From sequence record PV191315.1: a stretch of 64,000 nt of DNA; one strand, 5' to 3'. Numbering within the stretch: position 1 is the first letter of the stretch; each line of letters begins with the position of its first letter. Source of the DNA: Escherichia phage vB_EcoM-P3322. Below are positions 17,688-29,772 of the stretch, one piece after another. A program made the position numbers and the translations under genes. The notes below the pieces were generated by a model that was given only the letters and a program-made list of their open reading frames with translations, made no database searches and was not told the DNA's origin.

Positions 17688-17746
17688 GGCGGGAAACATT
17701 CCCGCCCTACGTGATAAATGATAATGTAAGCGTGATCCGGTGTCAA
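17688..17746 (-). promoter_or_regulatory. promoter + 5' GC-hairpin module
   Basis: rc: TTGACA (17741-17746), ~17-nt spacer, -10, then CACGTAGGGCGGGAATGTTTCCCGCC hairpin. Confidence 0.55.
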
Positions 17747-17880
17747 TAGGTAGGATTGTAAAGATTTGATAGTTTATCTCTTTGATGTTTTGTTGTTTGA
17801 TAGATGTTAGCTATCAATATATAGCGGGGTCGTCCGGTGATTATCTTCCCCTGCTCCCAGGTGCCGCCCGTTCAATAAGT

Positions 17881-17913
17881 ATAACAAAAAACAGGACAAA
17901 AACAAGCCCTGTT
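17881..17913 (-). terminator. terminator-like hairpin
   Basis: AACAGG...CCTGTT stem followed on minus strand by TTTTTGTTAT. Confidence 0.4.
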
Positions 17914-17921
17914 TATTTATC

Positions 17922-18056
17922 TTAAAACCAGTTGCCAACCGTTTCCAATAGGTCACTGACTACCAGGACAACATTAATCAGCACATATTCAACCAGGAAG
18001 GGAATAAGCGCCAGCGTTGCTACTACGATCCCCATTGTGATGATTACCTTTCTCAT
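17922..18056 (-). CDS. small hydrophobic peptide
   Basis: 44-aa ORF (MRKVIITMGIVVATLALIPFL...), single TM segment. Confidence 0.35.
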   Translation of the reverse strand: MRKVIITMGIVVATLALIPFLVEYVLINVVLVVSDLLETVGNWF

Positions 18057-18058
18057 GG

Positions 18059-18343
18059 TTAGCGGCTTACGTAAGCTTTACCGTTTACGGTCATCGGTAT
18101 GGCCTCAAGGTCTGGATCTTCCTTAAGGTCGCGTGCAAGCTCACCGCAGCGGATACCCTCGAATCCGTGGTATTCTGTCGCGCCGTCCTGGAAAGTTTTA
18201 GCGGCAAGGCATAGGCGATAATTAACACCGATCCGGTTTACCGCGTTGATATCGGTTAACGTGATGGATTCAGGCAAATCATTAGCCATTACAGGCGCGT
18301 TAATACCAACAACCAGGGCAACTACTGCGATCATCTTTTTCAT
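18059..18343 (-). CDS. secreted small protein
   Basis: Signal peptide MKKMIAVVALVVGINAPVMA. Confidence 0.55.
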   Translation of the reverse strand: MKKMIAVVALVVGINAPVMANDLPESITLTDINAVNRIGVNYRLCLAAKTFQDGATEYHGFEGIRCGELARDLKEDPDLEAIPMTVNGKAYVSR

Positions 18344-18398
18344 GTGTCTATCCTCTTCCTATTGCGTTTAATGGGGGCGTTACCGCCCTGCTTATGGT

Positions 18399-18635
18399 TT
18401 ATTGATTGATGTTATAATGAAAATTATTTTCTTCAATAGCTTTTAAAATAAAAGCCGTGATCGCTTTCGTGTCTACTTGTTCGAACGTATCAGAATAGCA
18501 CCAATAATAATCATCCCCTACTTTCGGCGGGTAAACCTGGACAAGGAGATCGCCACCTGGTTGATCTATAAGCTCAACATGCAAGCCGGATGATTCAGCG
18601 GTTTTAACGGCGGTTAATACTGTTGCAATACTCAT
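18399..18635 (-). CDS. hypothetical protein
   Basis: 78-aa ORF; GC hairpin 18651-18666 in 5' leader. Confidence 0.5.
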   Translation of the reverse strand: MSIATVLTAVKTAESSGLHVELIDQPGGDLLVQVYPPKVGDDYYWCYSDTFEQVDTKAITAFILKAIEENNFHYNINQ

Positions 18636-18679
18636 AATCTTTTCCTTTCTGATGTGGGGCGTTGCCGCCCCTTTGTTGA

Positions 18680-18979
18680 TTAGATCGCTGTTTCCAGTAG
18701 TTCGGCTAACGTCTTACCGCCTGATAGTTGGTCTAACGTTTGCTCTTCTGGCAAGAAATTAGCTGATATTAATCCGACTTGATTTCCTTTGTGCCAATTA
18801 GCTTGACGGATGATTCCATCCTTTAAAGATTTTACCGCCATTGTGCAACCGTCGCCAAATGATTCATTTTTATGATCCATCACTTCATAAGCGCCCAGCT
18901 TGCTACTGTTAGGCACCATTAACGCGAATACATCACCAACAACCAGTTTTTCTACGGTAATAATAGCGATAGTTTCCAT
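18680..18979 (-). CDS. hypothetical protein
   Basis: 99-aa ORF, GAGGA RBS, module upstream. Confidence 0.5.
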   Translation of the reverse strand: METIAIITVEKLVVGDVFALMVPNSSKLGAYEVMDHKNESFGDGCTMAVKSLKDGIIRQANWHKGNQVGLISANFLPEEQTLDQLSGGKTLAELLETAI

Positions 18980-19007
18980 TTTACTTTCCTCATTATCGGC
19001 GGCACCA

Positions 19008-19064
19008 TTGCCGCCCTACGTGGTAAATATTAGCACACTGGCGATCTGTGTCAATACTTTTTAT
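19008..19064 (-). promoter_or_regulatory. promoter + 5' GC-hairpin module
   Basis: rc: TTGACA, 17-nt spacer, TAATAT, CACGTAGGGCGGCAATGGTGCCGCC. Confidence 0.55.
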
Positions 19065-19447
19065 TCAATATAAATCAAATTATCTTCACCAATGTAAGCC
19101 GACACGTTCGGCATAAACTTAGCTGCATTGGTTAGGCGGTTGGCTGTGTTAGTGGTGTATATTTCAGGGCGATCCCAAAAGCCTACGCCGTGACCGTTAC
19201 GGGTAAAATGTAAATCATTCCCGATCTGGTTGGCTGTTGCGCCGTCGCTCATTGCCTCAGAGATAGCGGCAAGATTAGCATTAATAAAGGCTGTTACATC
19301 CTGGGCGATCCGTTGATCTGCGCTAGGAGAAAAATCATAATCGTCTAAGTTATCAATAAAATTACCTTCATGATCCCTTGCTGATTCAGCAAAAATAAAG
19401 GCTTCTTTATAGCCGTTGATGATTTCAATAATGATTTCTGTTTTCAT
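19061..19447 (-). CDS. hypothetical protein
   Basis: 128-aa ORF. Confidence 0.55.
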   Translation of the reverse strand: MKTEIIIEIINGYKEAFIFAESARDHEGNFIDNLDDYDFSPSADQRIAQDVTAFINANLAAISEAMSDGATANQIGNDLHFTRNGHGVGFWDRPEIYTTNTANRLTNAAKFMPNVSAYIGEDNLIYIE

Positions 19448-19668
19448 GCTGTACGCTCGACAATAATAATAGTTTGCGGGATCTCGTTTTCTACTACTAA
19501 CAAGGCTTTTTTCTGTGTGATAGATATTTTAACACGTTGTAAAGTAGCGGTAAAATCTTTCATTTCATTATGCGCGGATTTAGTACAATGCCAGATCTCA
19601 GGCTTACCAACTTGTAAGCCGCGTAAAAATTCCGTTTTGCCTGTTTTGTTCGTGATCATTTGTTTCAC
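19444..19668 (-). CDS. hypothetical protein
   Basis: 74-aa ORF. Confidence 0.5.
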   Translation of the reverse strand: MKQMITNKTGKTEFLRGLQVGKPEIWHCTKSAHNEMKDFTATLQRVKISITQKKALLVVENEIPQTIIIVERTA

Positions 19669-19669
19669 C

Positions 19670-19774
19670 TTAACCGATACCGTGGGAAGATAGGATCATA
19701 TTAGCCATAGTTGCAACTACTCCAACCGATAACGCCAGGCCAACCACTGCAACCGTGAAAATTTTCTCTAACAT
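19670..19774 (-). CDS. small hydrophobic peptide
   Basis: 34-aa ORF (MLEKIFTVAVVGLALSVGVV...) directly downstream of a module; track ORF extended through the promoter. Confidence 0.3.
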   Translation of the reverse strand: MLEKIFTVAVVGLALSVGVVATMANMILSSHGIG

Positions 19775-19793
19775 GATTCTACCCTCATTAATG

Positions 19794-19854
19794 GGCGTTG
19801 CACCATTGCCCCGCCCTACGTAATACACTTTACTAGATAACAAATTATTGTCAA
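19794..19854 (-). promoter_or_regulatory. promoter + 5' GC-hairpin module
   Basis: rc: TTGACA (19849-19854), -10, TACGTAGGGCGGGGCAATGGTGCAACGCCC. Confidence 0.5.
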
Positions 19855-19995
19855 GCTTTATTTTACTTCCCAAACGGAAAATTCGCTGCCTGTTGGGATC
19901 ATTTTTTTAATCTTGTTTGCTGCCGCTACCAGGTCAACGGCTTGTACTGTAATAATATAACCAATTGTCGAGGCTGTTGCGTTGAAAGTTTTCAT
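19816..19995 (-). CDS. hypothetical small protein
   Basis: 59-aa ORF (MKTFNATASTIGY...), AAGGG RBS; 3' end overlaps downstream module. Confidence 0.35.
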
Positions 19996-20014
19996 TATAT
20001 TGCCCTTTAATACA

Positions 20015-20037
20015 GGCGGGATTAATCCCGCCTTTTT
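20015..20037 (+). terminator. terminator-like hairpin (plus-strand orientation)
   Basis: GGCGGGATTAATCCCGCC followed by TTTTTG on plus strand, inside minus-strand block. Confidence 0.4.
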
Positions 20038-20039
20038 GA

Positions 20040-20210
20040 TTACTCTTCATTATCGCCGTTATAGTATTCAATGCCGTTTTCATCGGTTACGGTGATGTTA
20101 ACGCCACCGATAGCAACACGATCACGGGCAAACGTCATAGCTTCATTTAAATCTTCAGACCAAAAAATATTGTGACCTTTGCGCGATACATAAAACATAG
20201 TCGGGATCAT
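20040..20210 (-). CDS. hypothetical small protein
   Basis: Start at internal ATG (rc 20208-20210, MIPTMFYVSRKG); longer track ORF would run through the upstream module. Confidence 0.45.
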   Translation of the reverse strand: MIPTMFYVSRKGHNIFWSEDLNEAMTFARDRVAIGGVNITVTDENGIEYYNGDNEE

Positions 20211-20232
20211 GATTTGTTTCTCTTCTGTTATG

Positions 20233-20293
20233 AGCGGTGGACCATTCCGCCGCCCTATGTGGTAAACTTTACTACGTTGTTTGCCTGCTGTCA
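20233..20293 (-). promoter_or_regulatory. promoter + 5' GC-hairpin module
   Basis: rc: TTGACA (20288-20293), -10, CACATAGGGCGGCGGAATGGTCCACCGC. Confidence 0.5.
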
Positions 20294-20295
20294 AA

Positions 20296-20580
20296 CTATT
20301 TTTTAATGTTTTGCCCTACAAAATCGATCACTTCCTTAAGCTGTCTCTCTGTCATGATCGTACCTGGTAACTCTTCTTTAATTTCTTCCGGTAAATAGAT
20401 ATTACCGCGCCAGGTTAACAAACAACCGTTTTGATCTTCGCAGATAGAATAAGAAAACATCCACTCGCAATCATTTTCAAGCTCCCAAAAACACAAAAAG
20501 TCTTCTTTCCCTAAGTTTTCAACGGTTAAACATAATCCGCGACGTGCTGCATAATTAGTTAGGCTTTTTGTGATTTTCAT
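20296..20580 (-). CDS. hypothetical protein
   Basis: Start at internal ATG (rc 20578-20580, MKITKSLTNY). Confidence 0.5.
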   Translation of the reverse strand: MKITKSLTNYAARRGLCLTVENLGKEDFLCFWELENDCEWMFSYSICEDQNGCLLTWRGNIYLPEEIKEELPGTIMTERQLKEVIDFVGQNIKK

Positions 20581-20599
20581 GATTTTTCTCTCTTCTTGT

Positions 20600-20657
20600 G
20601 AGCGGCACCATTGCCGCCCTACAAGATACATATTACCAGATTAAGCGGACTTGTCAA
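20600..20657 (-). promoter_or_regulatory. promoter + 5' GC-hairpin module
   Basis: rc: TTGACA (20652-20657), TAATAT, TTGTAGGGCGGCAATGGTGCCGCTC. Confidence 0.55.
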
Positions 20658-20658
20658 A

Positions 20659-20769
20659 CTATTTTTTCTTTTTCTTTGCTTTCAATCGTCTAAGGTTACG
20701 GCTGGACTTATTGCGCAAGGCGCTTAGATCGTCGTACCCTTTCCATGCTTGCATATCTTTCGGATTCAT
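20659..20769 (-). CDS. small basic protein
   Basis: 36-aa ORF (MNPKDMQAWKGY...KAKKKKK) with AAGGGGA RBS. Confidence 0.35.
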   Translation of the reverse strand: MNPKDMQAWKGYDDLSALRNKSSRNLRRLKAKKKKK

Positions 20770-20778
20770 GTTATCCCC

Positions 20779-20940
20779 TTACTTGTTAGCCGGATCATAT
20801 ACCAGGACCGCGCCGCTTGCTTTCACGCTTTCCGCTTCATAGTTGCGCAGATCGTTTTCTGTAAGATTGAGCGCGATCACTTCCTCGATCTCAACGCCAG
20901 CGGCAAGGGCGATCTCTTTGATAATATCTGTTGTTTTCAT
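20779..20940 (-). CDS. hypothetical small protein
   Basis: Start at internal ATG (rc 20938-20940, MKTTDIIKEI). Confidence 0.4.
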   Translation of the reverse strand: MKTTDIIKEIALAAGVEIEEVIALNLTENDLRNYEAESVKASGAVLVYDPANK

Positions 20941-20950
20941 GGTGTGCACC

Positions 20951-21070
20951 TTATAAGATGATTGATAAGATAGTGACAACGAAAGCGATTATACTGATGG
21001 CAAATGTCATCTTTTTACCTTCGGATACTGCCGGATTTTCTACCGTGTATTCTACTGTGTACTTGCTCAT
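20951..21070 (-). CDS. small membrane peptide
   Basis: 39-aa ORF with C-terminal TM segment FAISIIAFVVTILSIIL. Confidence 0.35.
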   Translation of the reverse strand: MSKYTVEYTVENPAVSEGKKMTFAISIIAFVVTILSIIL

Positions 21071-21093
21071 CGTGTAATCCTCTCGTTTGCTTT

Positions 21094-21150
21094 GGGAACT
21101 ATTCCCGCCGCCCTATGAATTAAATATACACTATCTCAAAATGATTGCAA
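21094..21150 (-). promoter_or_regulatory. promoter + 5' GC-hairpin module (TTGCAA -35 variant)
   Basis: rc: TTGCAA, -10, TTCATAGGGCGGCGGGAATAGTTCCC. Confidence 0.5.
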
Positions 21151-21168
21151 GCCTTTTTCTAAATTATT

Positions 21169-21453
21169 TTATTCAGTAAACAAACCATCATTTACAACGG
21201 CGGCGATGATCTCCCGTGCCATTGATTCAGGGAAAGGGGCGCTATAGTCCTGGCTTGTCTCATCGGTATCGGTGATCCAATGATAAGCTAACGAGTAAAA
21301 GCCTTTACTAACTGTTTTCAGTGAGATGATGATCACTCGGTCAAGCTTATTGGTGAATGTTGCCGTTAATGTGTTACCCTCCTGCGTCATGTTGGACAAG
21401 TAAGCGAGATCATTAATCAGGGAAAACATTAGCACGGTGTTAGCTTTACTCAT
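21169..21453 (-). CDS. hypothetical protein
   Basis: Start at internal ATG (rc 21451-21453, MSKANTVLMF) with GAGGA RBS. Confidence 0.5.
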   Translation of the reverse strand: MSKANTVLMFSLINDLAYLSNMTQEGNTLTATFTNKLDRVIIISLKTVSKGFYSLAYHWITDTDETSQDYSAPFPESMAREIIAAVVNDGLFTE

Positions 21454-21471
21454 GATTGCATCCTCAAAGGG

Positions 21472-21530
21472 GCGCGGCACCATTGCCGCCCTACACGATA
21501 ACTATAACACAATGTAAAACAGGGTCAACC
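21472..21530 (-). promoter_or_regulatory. promoter + 5' GC-hairpin module
   Basis: rc: TTGACC, TATAGT, TATCGTGTAGGGCGGCAATGGTGCCGCGCC. Confidence 0.5.
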
Positions 21531-21731
21531 TTTATTTTTCCACGGTGTCAGCTTGTTAATCATTGGTGATAAATAGCGTTTACCAACGTAAAACAGTACG
21601 CCAACTGATGCAACGGCGGCGACCTCATGCATAGCCGACGGGAAACGGGTATCATAATAAGATCCAATAATAGCAATAGCGGCAACGGCTGCAACGTCGA
21701 TAATGATTTTCTCTTGTTTTGCGGTGATCAT
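21525..21731 (-). CDS. small membrane protein
   Basis: 68 aa with two hydrophobic segments. Confidence 0.5.
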   Translation of the reverse strand: MITAKQEKIIIDVAAVAAIAIIGSYYDTRFPSAMHEVAAVASVGVLFYVGKRYLSPMINKLTPWKNKG

Positions 21732-21752
21732 AGTATTTACCTTTTTGTATGG

Positions 21753-21810
21753 TGGGGAACTATTCCCCGCCTGATGTAATACAGTTTAACAGGTCCGGTT
21801 ATGGTGTCAA
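21753..21810 (-). promoter_or_regulatory. promoter + 5' GC-hairpin module
   Basis: rc: TTGACA (21805-21810), -10, ACATCAGGCGGGGAATAGTTCCCCACC. Confidence 0.5.
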
Positions 21811-21816
21811 CCACTT

Positions 21817-22002
21817 TTAAAGATATTTTATGCTAATGACGTTTTCAGGTTTTACCTTGTTATAATGTGCATCAACATAGATCAAACCATCGTCAGAAAA
21901 GCCCAGGATCACGCCCTGCGCGATAAAACCGTACTCGTCACGGTAACGCACGGCTATTTTTAATGTTGCGTTGTAGGCTGTTTTAAGCTCGTTTAAAGTC
22001 AT
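21817..22002 (-). CDS. hypothetical protein
   Basis: 61-aa ORF. Confidence 0.45.
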   Translation of the reverse strand: MTLNELKTAYNATLKIAVRYRDEYGFIAQGVILGFSDDGLIYVDAHYNKVKPENVISIKYL

Positions 22003-22021
22003 TTTTGTTTATCCTCTACAT

Positions 22022-22051
22022 GTAAAAAGAAAGGGCGCTTGATGCGCCCTT
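22022..22051 (-). terminator. intrinsic terminator
   Basis: AAGGGCGCATCAAGCGCCCTT hairpin followed on minus strand by TTCTTTTTAC. Confidence 0.6.
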
Positions 22052-22057
22052 GTTATG

Positions 22058-22204
22058 TTAATCCTCTAAATCCATCCAATTATATTTGTCACTCTTCCCG
22101 CGCTTTGTTTTATTACGCTTGTCACCTTTGCGGATCACTTCCTCGTTCCAGGCCTTGCGGATCTTGGAAGATTGAATTTTTTCTGCGCGATTAGATGTAT
22201 TCAT
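22058..22204 (-). CDS. small basic protein
   Basis: 48-aa ORF (MNTSNRAEKIQSSKIRK...) between module and terminator. Confidence 0.4.
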   Translation of the reverse strand: MNTSNRAEKIQSSKIRKAWNEEVIRKGDKRNKTKRGKSDKYNWMDLED

Positions 22205-22221
22205 TTTGTTTCCTCTTTATA

Positions 22222-22277
22222 TGAGCGGCACCATTGCCGCTATATTGTTAATTTAAACTGTTTTGTAAAATTGTCAA
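22222..22277 (-). promoter_or_regulatory. promoter + 5' GC-hairpin module
   Basis: rc: TTGACA (22272-22277), spacer, -10, TAGCGGCAATGGTGCCGCTC. Confidence 0.5.
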
Positions 22278-22283
22278 GGTTTA

Positions 22284-22637
22284 TCATTCATAAGAGCAAG
22301 CAAGGATCACGCCTGCAATATAAAGCCAATAATTTTCCCTTTCTCGTTGGATTTTATCATCGCTGCTATTCTCTTTAATGTATCCCCAGGATGTTAACAA
22401 GCGATCAATTTCCCAATATTCGAAAGCTATATTAATATCTGATGGCAAACCTTGTAACCATGATGCAAGTGCTTTAACAATACTATAATTAAAACGTGAT
22501 TGATTATCAGGGTACCAGTACTCGGAATTAAAACGGCGCATCAATTCCGCGATCTTCTCTTTTTCGGTTGTAATACCGTAATCATTAAAATCGATAGCGG
22601 CAAGGATGTACTCTTTAATTGCATTTTGTGCTTTCAT
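22284..22637 (-). CDS. hypothetical protein
   Basis: 117-aa ORF. Confidence 0.5.
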   Translation of the reverse strand: MKAQNAIKEYILAAIDFNDYGITTEKEKIAELMRRFNSEYWYPDNQSRFNYSIVKALASWLQGLPSDINIAFEYWEIDRLLTSWGYIKENSSDDKIQRERENYWLYIAGVILACSYE

Positions 22638-22654
22638 GGTCTTTCTCTCTTTTT

Positions 22655-22712
22655 AGCGGGAACTATTCCCGCCCTACGTGTAACAGTTTACTGAAAATTA
22701 AATCCGTGTCAA
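22655..22712 (-). promoter_or_regulatory. promoter + 5' GC-hairpin module
   Basis: rc: TTGACA (22707-22712), -10, CACGTAGGGCGGGAATAGTTCCCGCT. Confidence 0.55.
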
Positions 22713-22715
22713 GCT

Positions 22716-22937
22716 TTATTTTGTTACTACCATTTGGTACCCTGTTTCAATGTTAGTAAATACTGTTATCCCGTCCTGGCGTTCACTCATTAGCATACAA
22801 GGCGCTAACATCCTTTCTACTGCCTTGCACTCATTGTAAACGGCGGTTATGTCTCCTGCGGCCTTGTCTTCTGTGGTGAATGTATCGTTTATGTAAACTT
22901 GACTAGCGACAACGGCGACAATAGCGAAAGTGATCAT
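22716..22937 (-). CDS. hypothetical protein with hydrophobic N-terminus
   Basis: 73 aa; MITFAIVAVVASQVY signal/anchor-like start. Confidence 0.5.
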   Translation of the reverse strand: MITFAIVAVVASQVYINDTFTTEDKAAGDITAVYNECKAVERMLAPCMLMSERQDGITVFTNIETGYQMVVTK

Positions 22938-23010
22938 GATATTTTTCTCTTTATGTGTTTCTATTAGTTGATATTACAGCAATTCGCAGATTATTTTTTA
23001 GCAATTCGTG

Positions 23011-23229
23011 CTATTTACTCATAACAGTATCGAAAACAAATTTTTCTTTGTTGTCAAAGCTCACGTATCCGATTCTACCACGCAAGCCGCAAGTAGTGCC
23101 GTATTCGTAACCGTCAAGACCTTTAACCTTCCAATCCACGCCCATTAAAACCGCATTATATTTCTGACCAACTACAAACGCGCCACCAGTTGATTCAATG
23201 CAAACAACTTTAATTTTACGGATTGCCAT
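23011..23229 (-). CDS. hypothetical protein
   Basis: 72-aa ORF. Confidence 0.5.
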   Translation of the reverse strand: MAIRKIKVVCIESTGGAFVVGQKYNAVLMGVDWKVKGLDGYEYGTTCGLRGRIGYVSFDNKEKFVFDTVMSK

Positions 23230-23265
23230 TTTCTTTCTCTCTTTCTGGTGATTGGTTTCTCTTCT

Positions 23266-23305
23266 CTATAGCGCCCATTGTAAGGCGCTATAACGAAAAG
23301 TCAAC
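23266..23305 (-). promoter_or_regulatory. promoter with palindrome spanning the -10
   Basis: rc: GTTGAC -35, 16-nt spacer, TACAAT; 9-bp arms TATAGCGCC...GGCGCTATA (23266-23291) flank the -10. Confidence 0.45.
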
Positions 23306-23307
23306 GA

Positions 23308-23475
23308 TTATTTTTTAAGGCTTAAAGTACCTAACTTGTCAGCATGACGCAGACCAGGGAATATCCATTTGCCTGACTCATCTTTCACCGGGGCTTTAAG
23401 CGTAGCGCCCAGGTTGGCGGCGTTAACTTTACGTGCAACGTTGCGAGCGGCTTCACGGGTAGCGAAAGTGATCAT
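23308..23475 (-). CDS. hypothetical small protein
   Basis: 55-aa ORF (MITFATREAARNVARKV...). Confidence 0.4.
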   Translation of the reverse strand: MITFATREAARNVARKVNAANLGATLKAPVKDESGKWIFPGLRHADKLGTLSLKK

Positions 23476-23499
23476 GGTGTTTTCCTCTTCTCTTTGTTA

Positions 23500-23561
23500 G
23501 GCGGTGGACCATTCCGCCGCCTTGATGTAATACAGTTTACTTTATTTTATTAAGATTGCAA
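23500..23561 (-). promoter_or_regulatory. promoter + 5' GC-hairpin module (TTGCAA variant)
   Basis: rc: TTGCAA, -10, CATCAAGGCGGCGGAATGGTCCACCGCC. Confidence 0.5.
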
Positions 23562-23567
23562 GCGGTT

Positions 23568-23783
23568 TTATGAAATAATTGTCAAAGTAAAATCATAAGA
23601 CTGATTTAATTTATATTGTACTTTATTGCCGTAGTAGTCACCTTTACGTAAAGATCCGCGAATACCTATCACATCCTTTACATCTTTAAGATTTTTTACG
23701 CCTGTAATGTCTTTATTGAAATACTCGTCATCTGAAAATAAAACTTGACTTGCATTTTTTAACAGTGTACGGATATTAGCCAT
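23568..23783 (-). CDS. hypothetical protein
   Basis: 71-aa ORF. Confidence 0.45.
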   Translation of the reverse strand: MANIRTLLKNASQVLFSDDEYFNKDITGVKNLKDVKDVIGIRGSLRKGDYYGNKVQYKLNQSYDFTLTIIS

Positions 23784-23806
23784 CGTGATAATCTCTCTTC
23801 TGTTGT

Positions 23807-23864
23807 GAGCGGCACTATTGCCGCCCTACGTAATACAGTTTACTCTTTTTCTTTCCGGTGTCAA
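23807..23864 (-). promoter_or_regulatory. promoter + 5' GC-hairpin module
   Basis: rc: TTGACA (23859-23864), -10, TACGTAGGGCGGCAATAGTGCCGCTC. Confidence 0.55.
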
Positions 23865-23873
23865 CAATCTTTT

Positions 23874-24101
23874 TCAGATTAATTCATCCAGGCATAACAG
23901 GCGATCAACGTTGAGATCGGTTAGGCTGATGGTTGGCACCTGGTAGGATTCGATGTACTCGACGCTTGCATATTCCCCAAAATTAGCAACAGCCCACTTA
24001 TTCAAGATCTCACATACATCATTAATCTTTTTGTTTGTTACAACTGCAATGACCTGGGAAGTGCCAACGGTGCCGGATACGCGAACAATATTGATAGCCA
24101 T
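23874..24101 (-). CDS. hypothetical protein
   Basis: 75-aa ORF. Confidence 0.45.
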   Translation of the reverse strand: MAINIVRVSGTVGTSQVIAVVTNKKINDVCEILNKWAVANFGEYASVEYIESYQVPTISLTDLNVDRLLCLDELI

Positions 24102-24122
24102 AATCTTTAATCTCTCTGTTTT

Positions 24123-24182
24123 GGCGGGAAACCACTTCCCGCCCTATGTGATACATCTTACACTAATTTTAAACGTTGTCAA
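24123..24182 (-). promoter_or_regulatory. promoter + 5' GC-hairpin module
   Basis: rc: TTGACA (24177-24182), TAAGAT-type -10, CACATAGGGCGGGAAGTGGTTTCCCGCC. Confidence 0.55.
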
Positions 24183-24191
24183 CTGTTTTTA

Positions 24192-24431
24192 TTACATTCC
24201 AACCATCGCGGCACGGATCGCAGTAGTGCTATATTTGAAACCGTCTGGCGTTTTATCTTGTCCAGTTTGTTCCAGAAAAAGCATCATATCCCGCGCCGCA
24301 TCATTACGATTAGCATTAGCGTTAATAAAATCTTGGGCCAACCGGTATAACGATTCATCGTTATTAATCCAAAGGCTTACATTCCAATGAGTTTTGTTTT
24401 TGTGACCGTTGTACATTTTAGATTTAGCCAT
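24192..24431 (-). CDS. hypothetical protein
   Basis: 79-aa ORF. Confidence 0.45.
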   Translation of the reverse strand: MAKSKMYNGHKNKTHWNVSLWINNDESLYRLAQDFINANANRNDAARDMMLFLEQTGQDKTPDGFKYSTTAIRAAMVGM

Positions 24432-24465
24432 GATTTTTCTCTCTTTTTCAGTGAGGCGGGAAGTG

Positions 24466-24514
24466 TTCCCGCTCTCTATGTAATACAGTTTACTCTTTTT
24501 ATTCGTGCTGTCAA
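24466..24514 (-). promoter_or_regulatory. promoter + 5' GC-hairpin module
   Basis: rc: TTGACA (24509-24514), -10, CATAGAGAGCGGGAACACTTCCCGCC. Confidence 0.5.
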
Positions 24515-24520
24515 TGCTTT

Positions 24521-24886
24521 TTATAAATCTTTTTTACGTTTTACATCGCTCGCATGACTGTATACAGTGATCCCATTGTCACGGCAAAAACGGGAAAGAT
24601 ACGCGCCGCGTGAAAACTCTTTACCTTCCATATTAATAACCTTGCTAAATTCTTCTAGGGCAACGGTATCAAAATGATCCCCATAGCCATATTGAAACGG
24701 AACGTTAACTACTTCGATCAGTTTACCGCCGATCTCAACATCAACCATCAAAGAGAAATAAGTATTACCATAAGACTTTTGAAACCAGCGACGGGCGCTA
24801 ATATGTACCGCTTCAATGCTGGATAGTTCAATTTTAGCAGTGTTAGCCAGGGTAGCATAAGCAGAAACATTGATATTTTTAGCCAT
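24521..24886 (-). CDS. hypothetical protein
   Basis: 121-aa ORF; degenerate module upstream (24890-24975). Confidence 0.5.
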   Translation of the reverse strand: MAKNINVSAYATLANTAKIELSSIEAVHISARRWFQKSYGNTYFSLMVDVEIGGKLIEVVNVPFQYGYGDHFDTVALEEFSKVINMEGKEFSRGAYLSRFCRDNGITVYSHASDVKRKKDL

Positions 24887-24981
24887 AGTCTTTAATCTCT
24901 TTTGATTAGTTAGGAGTATTCCCGATAAAAGTTATTATGCTTATACTATCACTCATTGTCAATAGTATAAGACTAAAACTT

Positions 24982-25161
24982 TTAACGATAATCGTTATAG
25001 GCTTTATTGACCTGGCGAATGTAACATTCGAAAGCAAGATCAATGTATTCGTATTCACGCACATAATCACCATAGGTCACTACATACATTTTTAAAGTTT
25101 CCTCATAAGCCAGGAGGATCGAATCTAAACCTATAATCTCAGTTTTTGCAATGATAGCCAT
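24982..25161 (-). CDS. hypothetical small protein
   Basis: 59-aa ORF (MAIIAKTEIIGLD...). Confidence 0.4.
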   Translation of the reverse strand: MAIIAKTEIIGLDSILLAYEETLKMYVVTYGDYVREYEYIDLAFECYIRQVNKAYNDYR

Positions 25162-25181
25162 GATGTTAACCTTTTATTGTT

Positions 25182-25238
25182 GGCGGCACCATTGCCGCCC
25201 TACGTGATAAACTATACCAGAATTTTAAACAGTGTCAA
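25182..25238 (-). promoter_or_regulatory. promoter + 5' GC-hairpin module
   Basis: rc: TTGACA (25233-25238), 16-nt spacer, TATAGT, CACGTAGGGCGGCAATGGTGCCGCC. Confidence 0.6.
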
Positions 25239-25244
25239 CCGTTT

Positions 25245-25607
25245 TTATTCGTAAATTTTACCGCTTTCGGCCCATACCATAACGCGGCGCATACTATCCC
25301 AAGTGTTTTGATCCAAGTTTAAGCCGTGCAACTCTTCGGTACTTCCCAGACCAGGTACCGCTTTGTTGTAAGTTGCATATAAGCGCCCTTGATACTCATA
25401 CGCCAGAGTAAGATCCGTTTGAATCATCTTTTTAAGCATAGCATTAAGCATCATATTAGCGGCATGTTGATCACGTTTTAGCGGTAACATATCAATAAGG
25501 GCGCGATAAGCTGAAACATGAATATCAACCGTTTCACGTGGTAAATTTTTCATATCATCACGGAAAGATACCAGATTAAACATGATAGTATTGATTTGCT
25601 TGCTCAT
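25245..25607 (-). CDS. hypothetical protein
   Basis: 120-aa ORF. Confidence 0.5.
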   Translation of the reverse strand: MSKQINTIMFNLVSFRDDMKNLPRETVDIHVSAYRALIDMLPLKRDQHAANMMLNAMLKKMIQTDLTLAYEYQGRLYATYNKAVPGLGSTEELHGLNLDQNTWDSMRRVMVWAESGKIYE

Positions 25608-25628
25608 TGTGTTACCCTTTTTTGTTTT

Positions 25629-25689
25629 GGCGGGGAAGTATTCCGCCGCCCTATGTGATACATCTTACCAGATTAAAAAACGTTGTCAA
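25629..25689 (-). promoter_or_regulatory. promoter + 5' GC-hairpin module
   Basis: rc: TTGACA (25684-25689), 16-nt spacer, TAAGAT (25662-25667), CACATAGGGCGGCGGAATACTTCCCCGCC. Confidence 0.6.
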
Positions 25690-25698
25690 GAATATTTT

Positions 25699-25794
25699 TT
25701 AGAAAATAATAACCGCTACTACAACCCAAAATGGAACGGCTAGAATGATAGCGTTAATCGTTCCAACCGTCAAGCTATTTTCTTTATTAATCAT
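25699..25794 (-). CDS. small membrane peptide
   Basis: 31-aa ORF (MINKENSLTVGTINAIILAVPFWVVVAVIIF). Confidence 0.3.
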   Translation of the reverse strand: MINKENSLTVGTINAIILAVPFWVVVAVIIF

Positions 25795-25822
25795 TGTAAG
25801 CCTCTTGCATAATTTCACTATT

Positions 25823-25880
25823 AGCGGCACCATTGCCGCCCTACGTGGTAAATATTATGCCAGTGGCGGCGATATGTCAA
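25823..25880 (-). promoter_or_regulatory. promoter + 5' GC-hairpin module
   Basis: rc: TTGACA (25875-25880), 17-nt spacer, TAATAT, CACGTAGGGCGGCAATGGTGCCGC. Confidence 0.6.
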
Positions 25881-26443
25881 AGACTATTTTCAAAGTTTTC
25901 TAGTGCGATCCTTTTTTCTTCCTCTGTTGGCTGATAATCAGGAAAAGCATCAACACACAACAACGGCGGGATCTCTTCGTACTCTTCCTCTTCCGTTGTC
26001 TCCTCGTCTTCCTCCTGGGCTATGGCTGCAATTTTGGCTAATTTTCTTTCAGCTTGAATCAATTTACCATCAAGTACGTTTTTTGCCATGTTGTAAGCGG
26101 TCCAGGTGATGCGCTTACTTTCCAATGCTTCATCAAGCGCCGCTATCTTGCTGGGGTATTCATCCAGGACACGAAAAGCCGGATCAATTTTGTACAAAGG
26201 ATTATCTTTCGCGCCGTCGCTCGCATCTTCCGCACTGGATAAATCAGCGTTACCATTTGCCAGCCAGCCAGGGCGCACATAACGCGCTTTTACGTTGCCG
26301 TTACTACGTGCTAATCTGTTACCTATTTGCTCACCGCTATATCCCGTGGATTCATCGATAAGATGATCGGGAATGATGCGCGGATCATCTGCTTCATGTT
26401 TTACCCAAGACTGGATCACATATTCGCGGCCCATATTAACCAC
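25877..26443 (-). CDS. hypothetical protein with acidic C-terminal stretch
   Basis: 188 aa; EEDEETTEEEEYEE acidic segment. Confidence 0.55.
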   Translation of the reverse strand: MVNMGREYVIQSWVKHEADDPRIIPDHLIDESTGYSGEQIGNRLARSNGNVKARYVRPGWLANGNADLSSAEDASDGAKDNPLYKIDPAFRVLDEYPSKIAALDEALESKRITWTAYNMAKNVLDGKLIQAERKLAKIAAIAQEEDEETTEEEEYEEIPPLLCVDAFPDYQPTEEEKRIALENFENSL

Positions 26444-26693
26444 CTTTTTTCAACAATTGGCATACTTTAAAAAGACTTGCTGAATCCTTGCAAGGGTAGA
26501 AAGATGTACGATAATCACGTACGCCAACCTTGCGGATCTCGATGTTTTCGCATGTTGTTTGATCAAAGATATTTATTTCATCACGCCCCCTTATATAAAC
26601 ATAGTGGGGATGTATTAACGCATATTTTGCTAATCTGTAAAAAGCGTTATCTTTGAACGCGATCACGTGACCTTTTAATTTGATGTAAAACAT
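26436..26693 (-). CDS. hypothetical protein
   Basis: 85-aa ORF. Confidence 0.45.
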   Translation of the reverse strand: MFYIKLKGHVIAFKDNAFYRLAKYALIHPHYVYIRGRDEINIFDQTTCENIEIRKVGVRDYRTSFYPCKDSASLFKVCQLLKKGG

Positions 26694-26710
26694 TCTACCA
26701 CCTTACAAAT

Positions 26711-26766
26711 AGCGGGAACTATTCCCGCTTTATGTAACATATTAACAAATTATTCGTTAATGTCAA
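26711..26766 (-). promoter_or_regulatory. promoter + 5' GC-hairpin module
   Basis: rc: TTGACA (26761-26766), -10, CATAAAGCGGGAATAGTTCCCGCT. Confidence 0.55.
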
Positions 26767-26769
26767 GCC

Positions 26770-27042
26770 TTAAAGCAAAAACGCTACATCTTGCGCTTTT
26801 AGTGTAGTATCAACCATTTTCGGGCTTTTATAATCAACAAAGCGCGCGGTTTTTTCAATAGCGAAACCGAGATAATCTTGCTTGTTGAAATTACATTCTT
26901 TCTTAAATGTTTCCCGTGCAATGGCAATCGCTGCGTCCAGGGATAAACGCCCGTCAATATTGATATTAGCGAAAGATCCGCCACCGCTCATAGGTTTACC
27001 AGTGGTGCCAGCTACGATCATTGTTGCGCTATATGATGCCAT
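26770..27042 (-). CDS. hypothetical protein
   Basis: 90-aa ORF. Confidence 0.5.
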   Translation of the reverse strand: MASYSATMIVAGTTGKPMSGGGSFANINIDGRLSLDAAIAIARETFKKECNFNKQDYLGFAIEKTARFVDYKSPKMVDTTLKAQDVAFLL

Positions 27043-27067
27043 GATGATAATCTCTCTTCTGTTACGA

Positions 27068-27126
27068 GCGGGAAACCACTTCCCGCCCTATGTGATACAT
27101 CTTATCAGGTTGTTGTTTGTTGTCAA
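27068..27126 (-). promoter_or_regulatory. promoter + 5' GC-hairpin module
   Basis: rc: TTGACA (27121-27126), TAAGAT-type -10, CACATAGGGCGGGAAGTGGTTTCCCGC. Confidence 0.55.
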
Positions 27127-27132
27127 TACTTT

Positions 27133-27330
27133 TTATTCTATCCCTGCAATTTGATTAACGCGCTTGCATTTTGTAGCGTGCTGGTCTTCTGTAATGACTC
27201 CCATTTCTAACAGGGAATCAATGAAAGATAAAACCGTTTCATGATCATCCTGGGGATGACTGAACTCAGTAAAACCGTTTACTATTACGTTGATTTGTCC
27301 AGCTTTCGCCACAATATGCAATGTTGCCAT
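27133..27330 (-). CDS. hypothetical protein
   Basis: 65-aa ORF; unusually long GC-rich 5' leader. Confidence 0.45.
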   Translation of the reverse strand: MATLHIVAKAGQINVIVNGFTEFSHPQDDHETVLSFIDSLLEMGVITEDQHATKCKRVNQIAGIE

Positions 27331-27603
27331 GATCTTAACTCCAGGTGATGAATGATGTTTTTTGTTGGTGGACGGTGGATTATGGAGATCCTCACCTTTG
27401 CCCGTCCTGCATTGCGCCCTCCTGTTGTTTATTGTCGTTGTGCCGCGCCCCCCTCGACAAGATGAATACTACGCTACCAGGCGAGGAACGTCAACCACTT
27501 TTTCAATCTTTTTTATTTTCTTTTTGCTTGCTATATATAAAGGAAAGGGCTATCATCTTTCTACCGCGCCAACCAGGGCGCACAACAAAGAAAGGGCGAC
27601 ACC

Positions 27604-27870
27604 ATGACAAATACTACATTACACCTTATGCACTCATTGGGCTGGCAAGGCGGCACGGTGCACCAGGTAGCAAGCGCAACGGGCTTAAAGGTTGAAACAG
27701 TTCTCAACCTGGGCGATCATAAGGTGGAAGAGATAGACCATTTTGATCCGTTCGCTGATGGTTATTTATGGGCTTGCAGTGGCGGCGGGGAAAGCAAGAT
27801 CCCACCAGGGGCGCGGGGCGATATGCATTTTTGGTTAGGTGTCCTTTCCTGGCAAGAAAACAAAAAATAA
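27604..27870 (+). CDS. hypothetical protein in GC-rich island (uncertain)
   Basis: 88-aa plus-strand ORF with AAGGG RBS and upstream TTGCTA-N17-TATCAT; GC content clearly above surroundings. Confidence 0.3.
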   Translation: MTNTTLHLMHSLGWQGGTVHQVASATGLKVETVLNLGDHKVEEIDHFDPFADGYLWACSGGGESKIPPGARGDMHFWLGVLSWQENKK

Positions 27871-27872
27871 TC

Positions 27873-27901
27873 TTGACAAGCCCAGGGATCGGGCTTATAC
27901 T
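27873..27901 (+). promoter_or_regulatory. strong sigma70-like promoter with operator-like palindrome in spacer
   Basis: TTGACA (27873-27878), 17-nt spacer AGCCCAGGGATCGGGCT, TATACT (27896-27901); GC-rich structured sequence follows, no convincing ORF. Confidence 0.5.
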
Positions 27902-28130
27902 GTTTTACATACAGAAGAGGAAGCGCCACCCCACGGCGTAAAGGCGGGGCTAACATACCAGGGCGCTGGTTGGAAGGTTGATCGCCGGTAGGCTGGGCGC
28001 TATATATTTGTAAAGAAATGTAAAGATAAAATAATCGCTTGCTTTCCTGGCTGGATCTGTTATTCTTATTACATGGCGAGGGGACACGGGAGCGCGAGAC
28101 AAACACCGCCCCTGCGCGTCATTCTCTAAA

Positions 28131-28202
28131 TGAGAATGATTATCATTTACCTTATCAAATAAGAATCAATCTCATTTATAAACCTAAATGCGAATCATTA
28201 TC
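28131..28202. promoter_or_regulatory. pair of Fur-box-like sites
   Basis: GAGAATGATTATCATTTAC and GCGAATCATTATCATTTGC match about 14-15 of 19 positions of GATAATGATAATCATTATC. Confidence 0.35.
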
Positions 28203-28253
28203 ATTTGCATTTCCATATGAGAACTCTTCTCATTCCCATCTGCATAAATTTTT

Positions 28254-28434
28254 GTAAACTTTAAATTTTGCTTTTGTACTTTCATTTTTGTAAAAGCAAA
28301 AAAACTTTAAATACTGTGGGCGCGCAAAATTTTTAAAATTTTCCTTGACTTTTGAGTTTTGTTTTGTATCTAACATTTTAAGATAATTTTCCTAAACTTT
28401 AAATTTTGGTTTTCAACTTTCACTTTTGTAAATT
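28254..28434. repeat. degenerate tandem direct repeat (~138-bp period), iteron-like
   Basis: TAAACTTTAAATTTTGCTTTTGTACTTTCATTTTTGTAAAAGC (28254-28296) vs TAAACTTTAAATTTTGGTTTTCAACTTTCACTTTTGTAAATTC (28392-28434); ATTTGAGATAAC repeated twice nearby. Confidence 0.6.
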
Positions 28435-28674
28435 CTTAAAAAGTTTAAATAATTTGAGGAATTTTTGAGATAACAAGTAGGGGTAATTTGAGATAACCTT
28501 TAATCTTATTGGCAGACCTTCAGGAACCCACCTAGATCGAATCCTAATGATGCAAACTGAAAAAGATAAGTGTTTGTATAGGACAAAATAATAGGCTCTC
28601 TACAGTGTTGTAGGAGCCTTATTTCTGTGCTACAAAGTGACACCTTTGTTCTAAAAATGAAAAAAGTTAAAATA

Positions 28675-29217
28675 TCACAAATATCGTCTTTGCGGTATTT
28701 TGTCTGGGAAAAGTATTTCGATCAGTTTGTTATGATATTTGCCTAAAAGATTCTGCCCTTTCCAGGTGGCAGGGTTTAGCACCCCTGGTTCATACATCCC
28801 CATTCCAATTCCGTAAACCTTATCGTAGGGGCTTGCTTCAACAAACGTTTTGTATTGGTAAAGGTGTAAGTCTGCATACAAATCTGGATTCTGTACATAT
28901 TTCAAGCATAAACCTCGCATAACAATACGCTCACGGTTCTCTTCCCATACGTTGTTATCAAAATCCGACACTGCCCTACCCATACGTTTGTAATAAGCTT
29001 GGATCTTCTCATCTTTCCGTATCAAACTATGAGTCAGAATAGCCTGTGCAGTGTTGTGGTCATTAAAAAGCAAAGCTTTACGCCACATCATGTATTGTTC
29101 GACACAATTAAATGTCTGATTGTAACCTGGTTCGGTTTCTGTAAAGGGTGCAATATACCAATTACTAAAAACATCTTTATGTGAAAAGAAGAATACATAT
29201 TCGTCAGTTATTCTCAT
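28675..29217 (-). CDS. NADAR-domain protein (YbiA-like, DUF1768)
   Basis: FSNWY...P, EQYMMWRKALLF, ILTHS, MGRAV, NVWEENRERIVMRGLCLKYVQNPDL, GIGMG...GQNLLGKYHNKLIE follow the NADAR motif order. Confidence 0.75.
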   Translation of the reverse strand: MRITDEYVFFFSHKDVFSNWYIAPFTETEPGYNQTFNCVEQYMMWRKALLFNDHNTAQAILTHSLIRKDEKIQAYYKRMGRAVSDFDNNVWEENRERIVMRGLCLKYVQNPDLYADLHLYQYKTFVEASPYDKVYGIGMGMYEPGVLNPATWKGQNLLGKYHNKLIEILFPDKIPQRRYL

Positions 29218-29429
29218 TTTTTCATACCTTCTAAGACTTTAGCTTGCCCGTCTTGAAAAGCTTTCATCAGAACTATCTTAAGATTGACTTCCAAGCGTTC
29301 TTCATCCTCTTTATAACAATCCAACACTGCTTTAAGTTCATCATAGTGGTTCAGAATAGGTTTAAAGATTTCATGATCTGCTAAACGTGCCATAGTTTCT
29401 CCTTTGTTAATCCATCCACCAGTAGCCAT
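29214..29429 (-). CDS. hypothetical protein
   Basis: 71-aa ORF, start/stop overlap with neighbours. Confidence 0.45.
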   Translation of the reverse strand: MATGGWINKGETMARLADHEIFKPILNHYDELKAVLDCYKEDEERLEVNLKIVLMKAFQDGQAKVLEGMKK

Positions 29430-29772
29430 AAACTGCGTCTGCGTCGATTAGTTTGTGTTTGTTGTTCCGCATGTAGTCTAAGATAAGTAGGCGTTTATTG
29501 TATCTGGAGAGATTATGACCCTCTTTTCCGCCATAGTCAAAATATTTTGCAAGATCTTTGCACTCAAACAAAATTAGTTCGGGAGTTTCTTCACACTGGT
29601 CTGTCTGGTACACTTGACGAATGATCATGTATACATCGTCGTCTTCCGCTAAATGCTCTACTGGTCCACATCCAGCAGGAACAAATTCATAGTCCCATCT
29701 GATCAGATGTTTCTCTACTGCTTCAAAGAAGTCCATTCTTTCGTTGCGCATAATTTGAACGTCAACTAACAT
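29407..29772 (-). CDS. hypothetical protein
   Basis: 121-aa ORF. Confidence 0.5.
   Translation of the reverse strand: MLVDVQIMRNERMDFFEAVEKHLIRWDYEFVPAGCGPVEHLAEDDDVYMIIRQVYQTDQCEETPELILFECKDLAKYFDYGGKEGHNLSRYNKRLLILDYMRNNKHKLIDADAVYGYWWMD

Follow-up and report, generated by a model that had tools for sequence, protein, structure and literature searches.

What is specified by a 1.34-kb gap between phage genes in which a near-consensus promoter points away from every neighbor? The gap lies in Escherichia phage vB_EcoM-P3322 (sequence record PV191315.1), within the 64,000-nucleotide (nt) stretch analyzed here, which we call the window and whose positions are used throughout; it separates a 65-amino-acid (aa) gene (27133 to 27330) from a NADAR-domain gene (28675 to 29217), and the neighboring genes are all on the minus strand. 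An original prediction described positions 27345 to 28110 as a GC-rich island, acquired horizontally and encoding either a structured noncoding RNA or a transcript under repressor control. By comparison with its relatives, this island is a conserved control region at the upstream edge of a leftward early-gene cluster, and its right half is a noncoding cassette of two promoter-RNA units (P1-RNA1 and P2-RNA2), followed by palindromes. The reading that we favor, tentatively and at somewhat less than an even chance, is that the cassette is an early noncoding unit, in which RNA1 would be a new phage small-RNA gene acting in trans and RNA2 would act in cis.

A noncoding cassette conserved across two phage subfamilies

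The 1.7 kb surrounding the locus are matched at 90 to 98% identity over at least 93% of their length among the 25 matches listed, all of them Escherichia or Klebsiella myoviruses of about 150 kb and most of them Phapecoctavirus (Stephanstirmvirinae), phAPEC8 included; by these matches, the window phage is a phAPEC8-like Phapecoctavirus. A sensitive BLASTN search of 50,697 phage records found at least 80% of the island covered in 123 records, the only variable part being its left ~100 to 130 bp. In phages of more distant genera, the match is confined to a segment lying right after P1 (~27904 to 28150-28236, at 72 to 84% identity). They include members of Seunavirus (PVP-SE1 and 4MG), Certrevirus (CR3, CR9, PhiTE, and POP15), and Mydovirus (Mydo and KNP2), as well as unclassified relatives (ABPH49, FBKp34, and UPEC06 among others), and most of their records leave the matched segment unannotated.

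In locus alignments, first of 12 and then of 35 distinct loci, the flanks are not conserved and the order of elements is kept throughout: P1, RNA1, a TGTAAAGA repeat, P2, RNA2, the motif GTCATTC, and the palindromes. The cassette is conserved across the Stephanstirmvirinae and most Vequintavirinae and is the only part of the gap of which this is true. Its core motif occurs only in phage genomes of about 121 to 153 kb or in their fragments, with matches in 16 IMG/VR contigs, in 10 metagenome contigs, nearly all of them fragments or complete genomes of 137 to 153 kb, and, when the database search was extended to 185,579 species genomes, in a single one, on a 4-kb contig of a metagenome-assembled genome. 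No match was found in 5,426 complete Escherichia coli genomes, and the element keeps its syntenic position in two phage subfamilies; this phage-only distribution, together with the conserved synteny, points to an element ancestral to the phage group and speaks against the recent horizontal acquisition that had been proposed. Looser DNA patterns applied to IMG/VR returned mostly chance matches in GC-rich phages, from which a covariance model retained one new variant, the Seunavirus locus L086, where the promoter(s), a structured RNA, palindromes, and an AT-rich repeat zone follow in the same order. A further covariance-model match, at L090, falls inside a coding region and was taken as chance.

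Both promoters are predicted to be early promoters of the host sigma-70 type, arranged in tandem and directed away from every neighboring gene. P1 (TTGACA-17-TATACT; 27873 to 27901, plus strand) is the near-consensus promoter on which the original prediction rested: it matches the consensus at 11 of 12 positions, is the best match in a consensus scan of 26500 to 29500, and shares its layout of an A-tract followed by TTGACA with 13 leftward early promoters of the window. Across the 35 loci, its −35 hexamer is TTGACA (17 loci), TTGCAA (12), or TTGACG (6), and its −10 hexamer is mostly TATACT, TATATT, or CATAAT at a spacing of 17 bp. P2 (TTGCTT-16-TATTCT; 28039 to 28066, plus strand) is not in the consensus-scan list; its hexamers were read by eye, so that its boundaries are a reading, and they are conserved across loci (TTGCAA-17-TATATT in relatives), where CTTGCA, CTTGCT, or CTTGAT is followed by TATATT, TATTCT, or TATTAT. 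The preservation of hexamers and spacing in 35 loci while the spacers vary argues for purifying selection on promoter function. Just upstream of P2, a direct repeat, TGTAAAGA-NN-TGTAAAGA (28009 to 28026, plus strand), is conserved in nearly all loci and may serve as an UP element or an activator site. The island holds, in addition to the promoter first described, a second promoter-RNA unit, P2-RNA2, that had been overlooked.

RNA1 as a putative small-RNA gene

The RNA1 core spans 27907 to 27991 on the plus strand and is supported by an alignment of 32 distinct sequences, by pair counts, and by a covariance model (R1) built from that alignment. It is composed of a purine-rich leader, a helix (27924-27927/27935-27938) around the loop ACCCCAC, a second helix (27943-27947/27982-27986), a variable hairpin (27955 to 27971), and a terminal GGUAG. 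Forty-eight columns are invariant among the 32 sequences, including CCACGGCG, AAAGGCGGGGCTAAC, AAGGT, and ATCGC. RNAalifold and manual reading agree on a small hairpin, CGCC-ACCCCAC-GGCG, and on a long irregular hairpin that is closed by GGCGG/UCGCC and has invariant internal loops and a tip of variable length. The CCCC of the small loop and a GGGG lying four nt past that hairpin, both invariant, could form an H-type pseudoknot.

Evidence that this fold is maintained comes from the substitutions that it tolerates. The cells of the proposed pairs are paired in 95.5% of cases, versus 17 to 44% when the partners are slid by 1 to 3 columns. Pair 50:72 in helix 3 is A-U in 18 sequences and G-C in 14, is never broken, and shows both states in more than one lineage, and pairs 53:70 and 55:68 flip in ABPH49 and in L086; the predicted base pairs of helix 3 are maintained by compensatory changes. 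Pair 42:83 is an invariant G-U, which on the other strand would read as a C-A mismatch. Model R1, whose E-values are rough because it is home-made, scores 100.7 bits at its one copy in the window. Neither RNA1 nor RNA2 is assigned to a described family: Rfam 15 (4227 models) yields no match in the whole window at gathering thresholds and, at an E value of ≤10 over 27850 to 28260, only chance matches in the AT-rich palindromes. The 5′ leader, ACAUACAGAAGAGGAAG, resembles the ribosome-binding leaders of the phage's early mRNAs, and no AUG, GUG, or UUG is visible in the ~20 nt after it. Given the deep conservation, the noncoding character, and the one compensatory helix, a structured noncoding transcript downstream of the promoter, as originally suggested, is the best reading of the segment and is predicted from its sequence.

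At the tip of the variable hairpin (27955 to 27971), a run of G's ranges from G3 to G7 among otherwise near-identical genomes and appears to be a hypermutable homopolymer.

One Mydovirus-like IMG/VR contig (2974574029; locus L027, 6291 to 7130) has a 197-aa open reading frame (ORF) with its own ribosome site directly after the RNA1 core (...GATCGCTGGTA); this ORF has no match in Pfam. The insertion leaves the core intact, which makes RNA1 the 5′ leader of the inserted ORF. After the ORF come a TTGACA promoter with a hairpin in its spacer and a diverged second copy of RNA1 (23 bits; E value of 3e-7) that retains helix 2 via C>U and G>A changes, which are one-sided. The inserted unit resembles a mobile cassette whose target is the conserved RNA1 gene.

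How such a unit would work can be outlined as follows. Host RNA polymerase would transcribe from P1 straight upon entry of the DNA, and RNA1 would fold into a free structured RNA able to bind a partner, protein or RNA, that is common to these phages or to their enterobacterial hosts. RNA2 would be a shorter hairpin at the 5′ end of transcripts from P2, leading into the palindromes and the A+T-rich zone, and more probably cis acting. We infer transcription, the RNA ends, and the trans action and partner of RNA1 from the comparison of sequences. The combination of invariant loops with a covarying peripheral hairpin of variable length is what leads us to prefer a trans-acting RNA with tertiary or protein contacts, and the absence of RNA1 from rV5-type phages (see below) and its duplication in L027 mark it as an independent module.

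Several observations weigh against this interpretation. Two of the three helices (helices 1 and 2) never vary among the 32 sequences and are neither supported nor refuted by covariation, and the covariation that exists rests on few events among related sequences. The fold energy is unremarkable (z scores of −1.27 on the plus strand and −0.83 on the minus strand), with 21 of 200 shuffled sequences folding as well. No terminator follows RNA1, and the P2 spacer forms no conserved hairpin; a hairpin there was considered as the terminator of RNA1 and rejected, since in most sequences the spacer folds no better than shuffles. Transcripts from P1 may, as a consequence, read on through RNA2 into the AT-rich zone. 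The rV5-type phages lack RNA1 and keep the rest, so that RNA1 is dispensable for the role of the region as a whole, and tandem promoters that face an AT-rich repeat zone fit a replication origin at least as naturally.

Tandem promoters facing palindromes and an A+T-rich zone

Downstream of the second promoter, RNA2 is a GC-rich hairpin (28071 to 28124, plus strand) with a conserved GAGACAAACACC segment and a closing stem (28073-28078/28117-28122) of the form AU(G/A)GCG with C(G/C)(C/U)G(U/C)(C/U)AU. This predicted stem covaries: pair 5:51 is GC in 7 sequences, AU in 5, GU in 2, and AC in 4; pair 6:50 is GU in 12 and GC in 6; and pair 8:48 is GC in 12, GU in 5, and AU in 1. The pentamer right after CACC is hypervariable (GCCCC, GGGGG, or GGACC), and the RNA2 tail can form a 9-bp hairpin (28118 to 28140) with the left arm of the first palindrome.

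The palindromes themselves number four, each of 21 bp with the core TGAGAAT-N-ATTCTCA, at a spacing of 29 bp (28126 to 28234). Their consensus, AAATGAGAAT-N-ATTCTCATTT, is conserved within and between phages across the two subfamilies; the core has 16 matches in the window against 5.8 expected, and weaker copies cluster in a second noncoding gap, at 15152 to 16184. We considered RNA hairpins and rejected them, as it is sequence rather than pairing that is conserved. With mismatches left uncompensated, the palindromes look like DNA sites for a dimeric protein and are probably protein-binding sites. These operator-like palindromes, which lie just beyond the island, were missed by the original prediction.

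The E. coli Fur box, which we take to be GATAATGATAATCATTATC with a 7-1-7 form of TGATAAT-N-ATTATCA, offers a point of comparison. Against this assumed consensus, the palindromes match at 14 or 15 of 19 positions at three sites, where 0.05 would be expected in shuffles of the AT-rich region. They share the 7-1-7 architecture and the AAATG...CATTT flanks, and copy 1 (TGAGAAT-G-ATTATCA) agrees with the 7-1-7 form at 13 of 14 positions; the phage consensus differs in having G/C at one symmetric position where Fur boxes have T/A. Host Fur or a phage regulator could bind the palindromes, the likeness to Fur boxes being a lead only.

Beyond the palindromes lies the most A+T-rich stretch of the window (28235 to 28500), which contains TTTGAGATAAC repeats as well as two direct repeats of 72 nt (28247 to 28318 and 28385 to 28456) and may be a zone of DNA unwinding or of iterons; regions rich in AT and in repeats lie at the same position in L086 and in the rV5-type phage FFH2. 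A two-way terminator follows (28594 to 28626), a GC hairpin with A-rich and T-rich flanks whose homolog is annotated in phAPEC8; it is predicted to end the convergent NADAR operon, which runs leftward, and would likewise halt rightward transcripts from P1 and P2.

In FFH2 (Vequintavirus; locus L091, 1790 to 2100), RNA1 is absent, the best score of model R1 being 6 bits. The locus comprises two tandem units, each of a promoter, an RNA2-like hairpin, and a palindrome, and then A+T-rich, iteron-like repeats (..AAAACGAAAAA.GATCGAGTAC..). This layout suggests that RNA2, the palindromes, and the AT-rich repeats make up the core of the region throughout the group, with RNA1 a separately conserved addition in most genera.

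Could the region then be a replication origin, primed or activated by transcription? Transcripts from P1 and P2 would enter the palindromes and the AT-rich zone and there form an RNA-DNA hybrid or open the duplex; the folds of RNA1 and RNA2 would help the hybrid to form or the primer to be processed, with the palindromes as sites for an initiator or a gatekeeper protein. There are precedents. The primary origin of T7 consists of the tandem promoters phi1.1A and phi1.1B and an AT-rich region, T4 oriF and oriG each pair a promoter with a DNA-unwinding element, and RNA II of ColE1 is an instance of priming by a transcript. As in the T7 and T4 origins, two tandem promoters are here aimed at an ORF-free, extremely A+T-rich stretch: both oppose all flanking genes, have no ORF downstream, and border immediately on the 300 nt of the window that are lowest in GC (28121 to 28450; GC of 0.243, ~4.4 standard deviations [SD] under the mean), so that promoters stand directly upstream of a candidate unwinding region. 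The four evenly spaced palindromes with the 72-nt repeats behind them, the recurrence of this layout in L086 and in FFH2, where RNA1 is missing and the unit duplicated, and the lack of a terminator between RNA1 and what follows are all in keeping with an origin. So is the positive GC skew of the transcribed segment (+0.21 at 27700 to 27999), since positive skew of a transcribed strand favors RNA-DNA hybrids.

The same comparison reveals differences, however. The window promoters are of the host sigma-70 type, long conserved structured segments come first, and an array of palindromes precedes the AT zone. Roughly 50 invariant nt, many in predicted loops, plus a covarying tip amount to more constraint than is known for origin transcripts. 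There are no DnaA or IHF boxes; GC skew tracks gene orientation and does not single out this site, for which reason we discarded it as an origin marker; and the presence of the same palindrome in the second gap (15.1 to 16.2 kb) looks more like the set of sites of a regulator than like iterons. An origin is, in our judgment, a close rival of the small-RNA reading, although somewhat less probable. It would not exclude a small-RNA gene, as the two readings of the region are not mutually exclusive, and RNA2 and the palindromes probably act in cis under either.

Other readings of the locus

A bolder version of the small-RNA reading, which we regard as rather improbable, is that RNA1 represents a new class of tertiary-structured RNA, an aptamer for a protein or ligand or a catalytic RNA, made within minutes of infection to capture or mimic some enterobacterial component that is itself conserved; it might, for instance, be a decoy for a protein of defense or of RNA processing. 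An invariant host target would in that case explain why RNA1 hardly varies across the two subfamilies. No mimicry of the host is apparent by sequence, as E. coli genomes give no match even to the 83-nt RNA1 core at an E value of ≤10. An apparent likeness of CCAGGUCGGAAGG to domain IV of 4.5S RNA receives no support from Rfam and was dropped.

RNA1 could instead be a cis-acting leader, either a riboswitch-like sensor or an antiterminator of the HK022 put or Bacillus EAR type, that controls read-through into RNA2, the palindromes, and beyond. It begins right at a strong early promoter, as put and EAR elements do, with hairpins and potential protein roadblocks downstream, and it serves as the 5′ leader of the inserted ORF in L027. 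Like riboswitch aptamers, it has invariant nt in loops and junctions, a variable peripheral hairpin with compensatory changes, and a possible pseudoknot. Unlike them, it has no recognizable expression platform and no plus-strand gene downstream, either in the window or in most relatives, and no riboswitch or leader family of Rfam is matched, even weakly. Nor does any operon here need read-through: rightward transcription would run antisense into the NADAR operon, past the two-way terminator, and P2 would supply downstream transcripts anyway. We consider a leader function improbable.

It is likewise quite improbable that the conserved block acts as DNA, whether as a single-strand initiation or primosome site, a packaging signal, or a target for mobile ORFs, with the promoters being incidental. 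The block is invariant in sequence rather than richly covarying, its hairpins could form in single-stranded DNA, and the mobile-looking ORF of L027 was inserted exactly at its edge. Yet promoters with conserved hexamers precede both blocks in every genus, and G-U pairs occur only on the plus strand (42:83 in RNA1 and 6:50 in RNA2). As for packaging, many related GenBank records begin or end within a different gap, at 14.9 to 16.4 kb, which may therefore hold the genome ends or the packaging site.

The original model of an imported island whose promoter is controlled by a repressor bound to a palindrome in its spacer is largely refuted and, in our view, very improbable. Its two observations hold: the composition is clearly deviant, and the palindrome is real. 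The 766 bp from 27345 to 28110 have a GC content of 0.492, compared with a mean of 0.393 (SD, 0.023) for all 766-nt windows of the 64 kb, and rank third of 6324 windows, both of the higher-ranked being overlapping neighbors. Composition is uneven along the island, however, with GC contents of 0.475 at 27345 to 27603, 0.494 in the gene upstream of P1 (ORF88), 0.615 in RNA1, 0.275 in the P2 region, and 0.714 in RNA2, and the high overall value arises because two structured RNAs, a gene, and a 5′ untranslated region (UTR) lie together. A restricted distribution, as might suit an import, is seen only in the left 100 to 130 bp (27345 to 27470), present in only some Phapecoctavirus genomes; the absence of E. 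coli matches and the synteny across two subfamilies speak against import of the whole.

The spacer palindrome forms a hairpin, AAGCCC-AGGGATC-GGGCTT (27878 to 27896, plus strand), whose arms are 6 bp long and which a scan flags as terminator-like. It folds at −8.0 kcal/mol versus −2.9 for shuffles (equaled by 2 of 200), and, among 20 distinct spacers, about 10 are far more stably folded than their shuffles. Its half-sites differ among relatives, with only the pairing kept: GCCCGGC-GAAA-GCTGGGC in PhiTE, ACCCAGC-GCAA-GCTGGGT in ABPH49, GGCCCC-GCCA-GGGGCC in UPEC06, and GCCTGGC-AAAA-GCTGGGC in FBKp34. Some of the loops are GNRA tetraloops, and some of the pairs are G-T wobbles on the plus strand, which are A-C mismatches on the other. 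Seunavirus and Mydovirus have no clean spacer hairpin; there, by eye, a GC stem encloses the −35 hexamer instead. Pairing that persists while sequence changes, together with the wobbles, indicates a hairpin at the RNA level and not a site for a sequence-specific protein such as a repressor. The stem starts 8 nt past the TAA of ORF88, and its tail, AUACUGUUUU, is only moderately U-rich; the hairpin would most likely be the intrinsic terminator of ORF88, overlapping P1, although its U-tract is weak.

That the segment encodes a protein, either the 113- to 114-aa minus-strand product phAPEC8_00257 (window 27762 to 28106) or a 50-aa product of a plus-strand ORF (27839 to 27991), is scarcely credible: long minus-strand stop-free stretches do exist in many relatives and one GenBank record annotates a coding sequence (CDS), but stop codons are expected to be absent from GC-rich inserts in AT-rich genomes, Pfam gives no match, annotations disagree between records, no ORF downstream of P1 is conserved, the stop-free length in the annotated frame varies from 30 to 104 codons, and indels of 1 to 6 nt in the G-run shift every frame between close relatives, so that RNA1 is not coding and the annotated CDS is spurious.

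Relation to known phage RNAs

Phages encode several small RNAs transcribed from host-type promoters, among them lambda OOP, P22 sar, P1/P7 c4, P4 CI, the T4 species 1 and 2 RNAs, and the pseudo-ToxI of PhiTE. Returning to our preferred reading of RNA1 as a trans-acting small RNA, we note that it resembles these in being short, noncoding, phage borne, and set among protein genes behind its own predicted sigma-70 promoter. It differs in matching none of them in sequence or structure (Rfam, which holds C4 and others, returns nothing at an E value of ≤10) and in not being antisense to any recognized gene. Pseudo-ToxI can be set aside: the escape locus of PhiTE lies at 106,714 to 106,772 and the RNA1 element at ~39.7 kb of the genome, and the latter has no 36-nt tandem repeats. 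In the library searched, the literature on phAPEC8, Phapecoctavirus, or Vequintavirinae yielded no account of a noncoding RNA, a small RNA, or a transcriptome, nor was the core sequence found. RNA1 would, on these comparisons, constitute a new RNA family within the phage-encoded small RNAs that are transcribed from host-type early promoters, its role as a trans-acting RNA being putative.

The matter is of some consequence, as phages of the genera Phapecoctavirus, Justusliebigvirus, Seunavirus, Certrevirus, and Mydovirus are isolated widely and find use in therapy and in biocontrol. Some 50 invariant nt, better conserved than the surrounding protein genes and placed behind one of the strongest host-type promoters, suggest that these phages depend on keeping their product unaltered. 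Should RNA1 act in trans, the few known phage riboregulators or decoys would gain a new RNA family; should the region be an origin, the replication start of a whole phage group would be located. RNA1 is also a compact target, 85 nt in length, that is open to mutations that break and restore its helices.

Under either reading, the annotation of the locus should change; GenBank records now leave it blank or place contradictory "hypothetical proteins" on both strands. In phAPEC8, the gap carries a 113-aa minus-strand CDS, in anhysbys an 88-aa plus-strand ORF, and in ZCKP1 two other ORFs; several related records leave it without annotation.

Neighboring genes and record annotation

Upstream of P1, ORF88 (27604 to 27870, plus strand) is the 88-aa ORF that the original prediction had noticed. 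It is a real protein gene, with 21 homologs of 72 to 120 aa (most of 86 to 93 aa) at identities down to 48% and an assignment to phrog_19316 (PHROG E value of 4.5e-59). Its AlphaFold2 model is all-helical (pLDDT of 93.7), and its function is unassigned: Pfam gives no match, there is no significant structural match, and a first impression of a helix-turn-helix was not confirmed. The original remark that no convincing ORF follows the promoter holds, none being conserved downstream of P1, but it overlooks that a third of the island is filled by this gene. A candidate promoter for ORF88, TTGCTA-17-TATCAT (27528 to 27556, plus strand), matches the consensus at 9 of 12 positions.

On the minus strand, a leftward early promoter, TTGACG-17-TAGTAT (27466 to 27494; 9 of 12 positions), has a homolog annotated as a promoter in phAPEC8. 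Its GC-rich 5′ UTR reaches to the start of the 65-aa gene at 27330, and it continues the series of 13 leftward early promoters at 17.7 to 27.1 kb. Each of these 13 minus-strand units (17709 to 27090) consists of an A-tract, TTGACA-N17-TAnnnT, and, a few bases farther on, a conserved TAGGGCGGC-loop-GCCGC hairpin and a ribosome site of the ACAGAAGAG type. The TAGGGCGGC-GCCGC hairpin corresponds to the "PHIRE promoter" of the phAPEC8 annotation; lying directly downstream of a host-type promoter, it is more suggestive of a conserved hairpin in the 5′ leaders of early mRNAs. The left 100 to 130 bp of the island (27345 to 27470), which belong to the 5′ UTR of the leftward operon, are missing or replaced in many Phapecoctavirus genomes, with matches beginning at query positions 103 to 128, and phAPEC8 has the standard TAGGGCGGC leader hairpin in their place. 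Over the leftward promoter, 82 nt (27447 to 27528) are 92.7% identical to positions 935 to 1016 of Enterococcus phage heks (MT119359; 39.7 kb), where a cytidine deaminase is annotated; the heks record is probably a chimeric or contaminated assembly.

The NADAR-domain gene on the other side of the gap (minus strand) is identified by Pfam with an E value of 8e-36, and the label "GTP cyclohydrolase II" that appears under the matched 1.7-kb stretch in several records probably refers to it. ARAGORN finds no tRNA or tmRNA in the window or in 10 related loci. In Klebsiella phage K23PH08C2 (OY757067, 3841 to 6964; locus L012), a dense tRNA cluster and pseudo "HNH endonuclease" CDSs are annotated over the locus; we discounted the cluster, as annotation and sequence appear to be out of register and ARAGORN finds no tRNA in that DNA. 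Elsewhere in the window, the second ORF-free gap (14900 to 16430; 1.5 kb) contains GCTAATGAT-type and GTTGTT repeats, and GC skew climbs to about 0 there.

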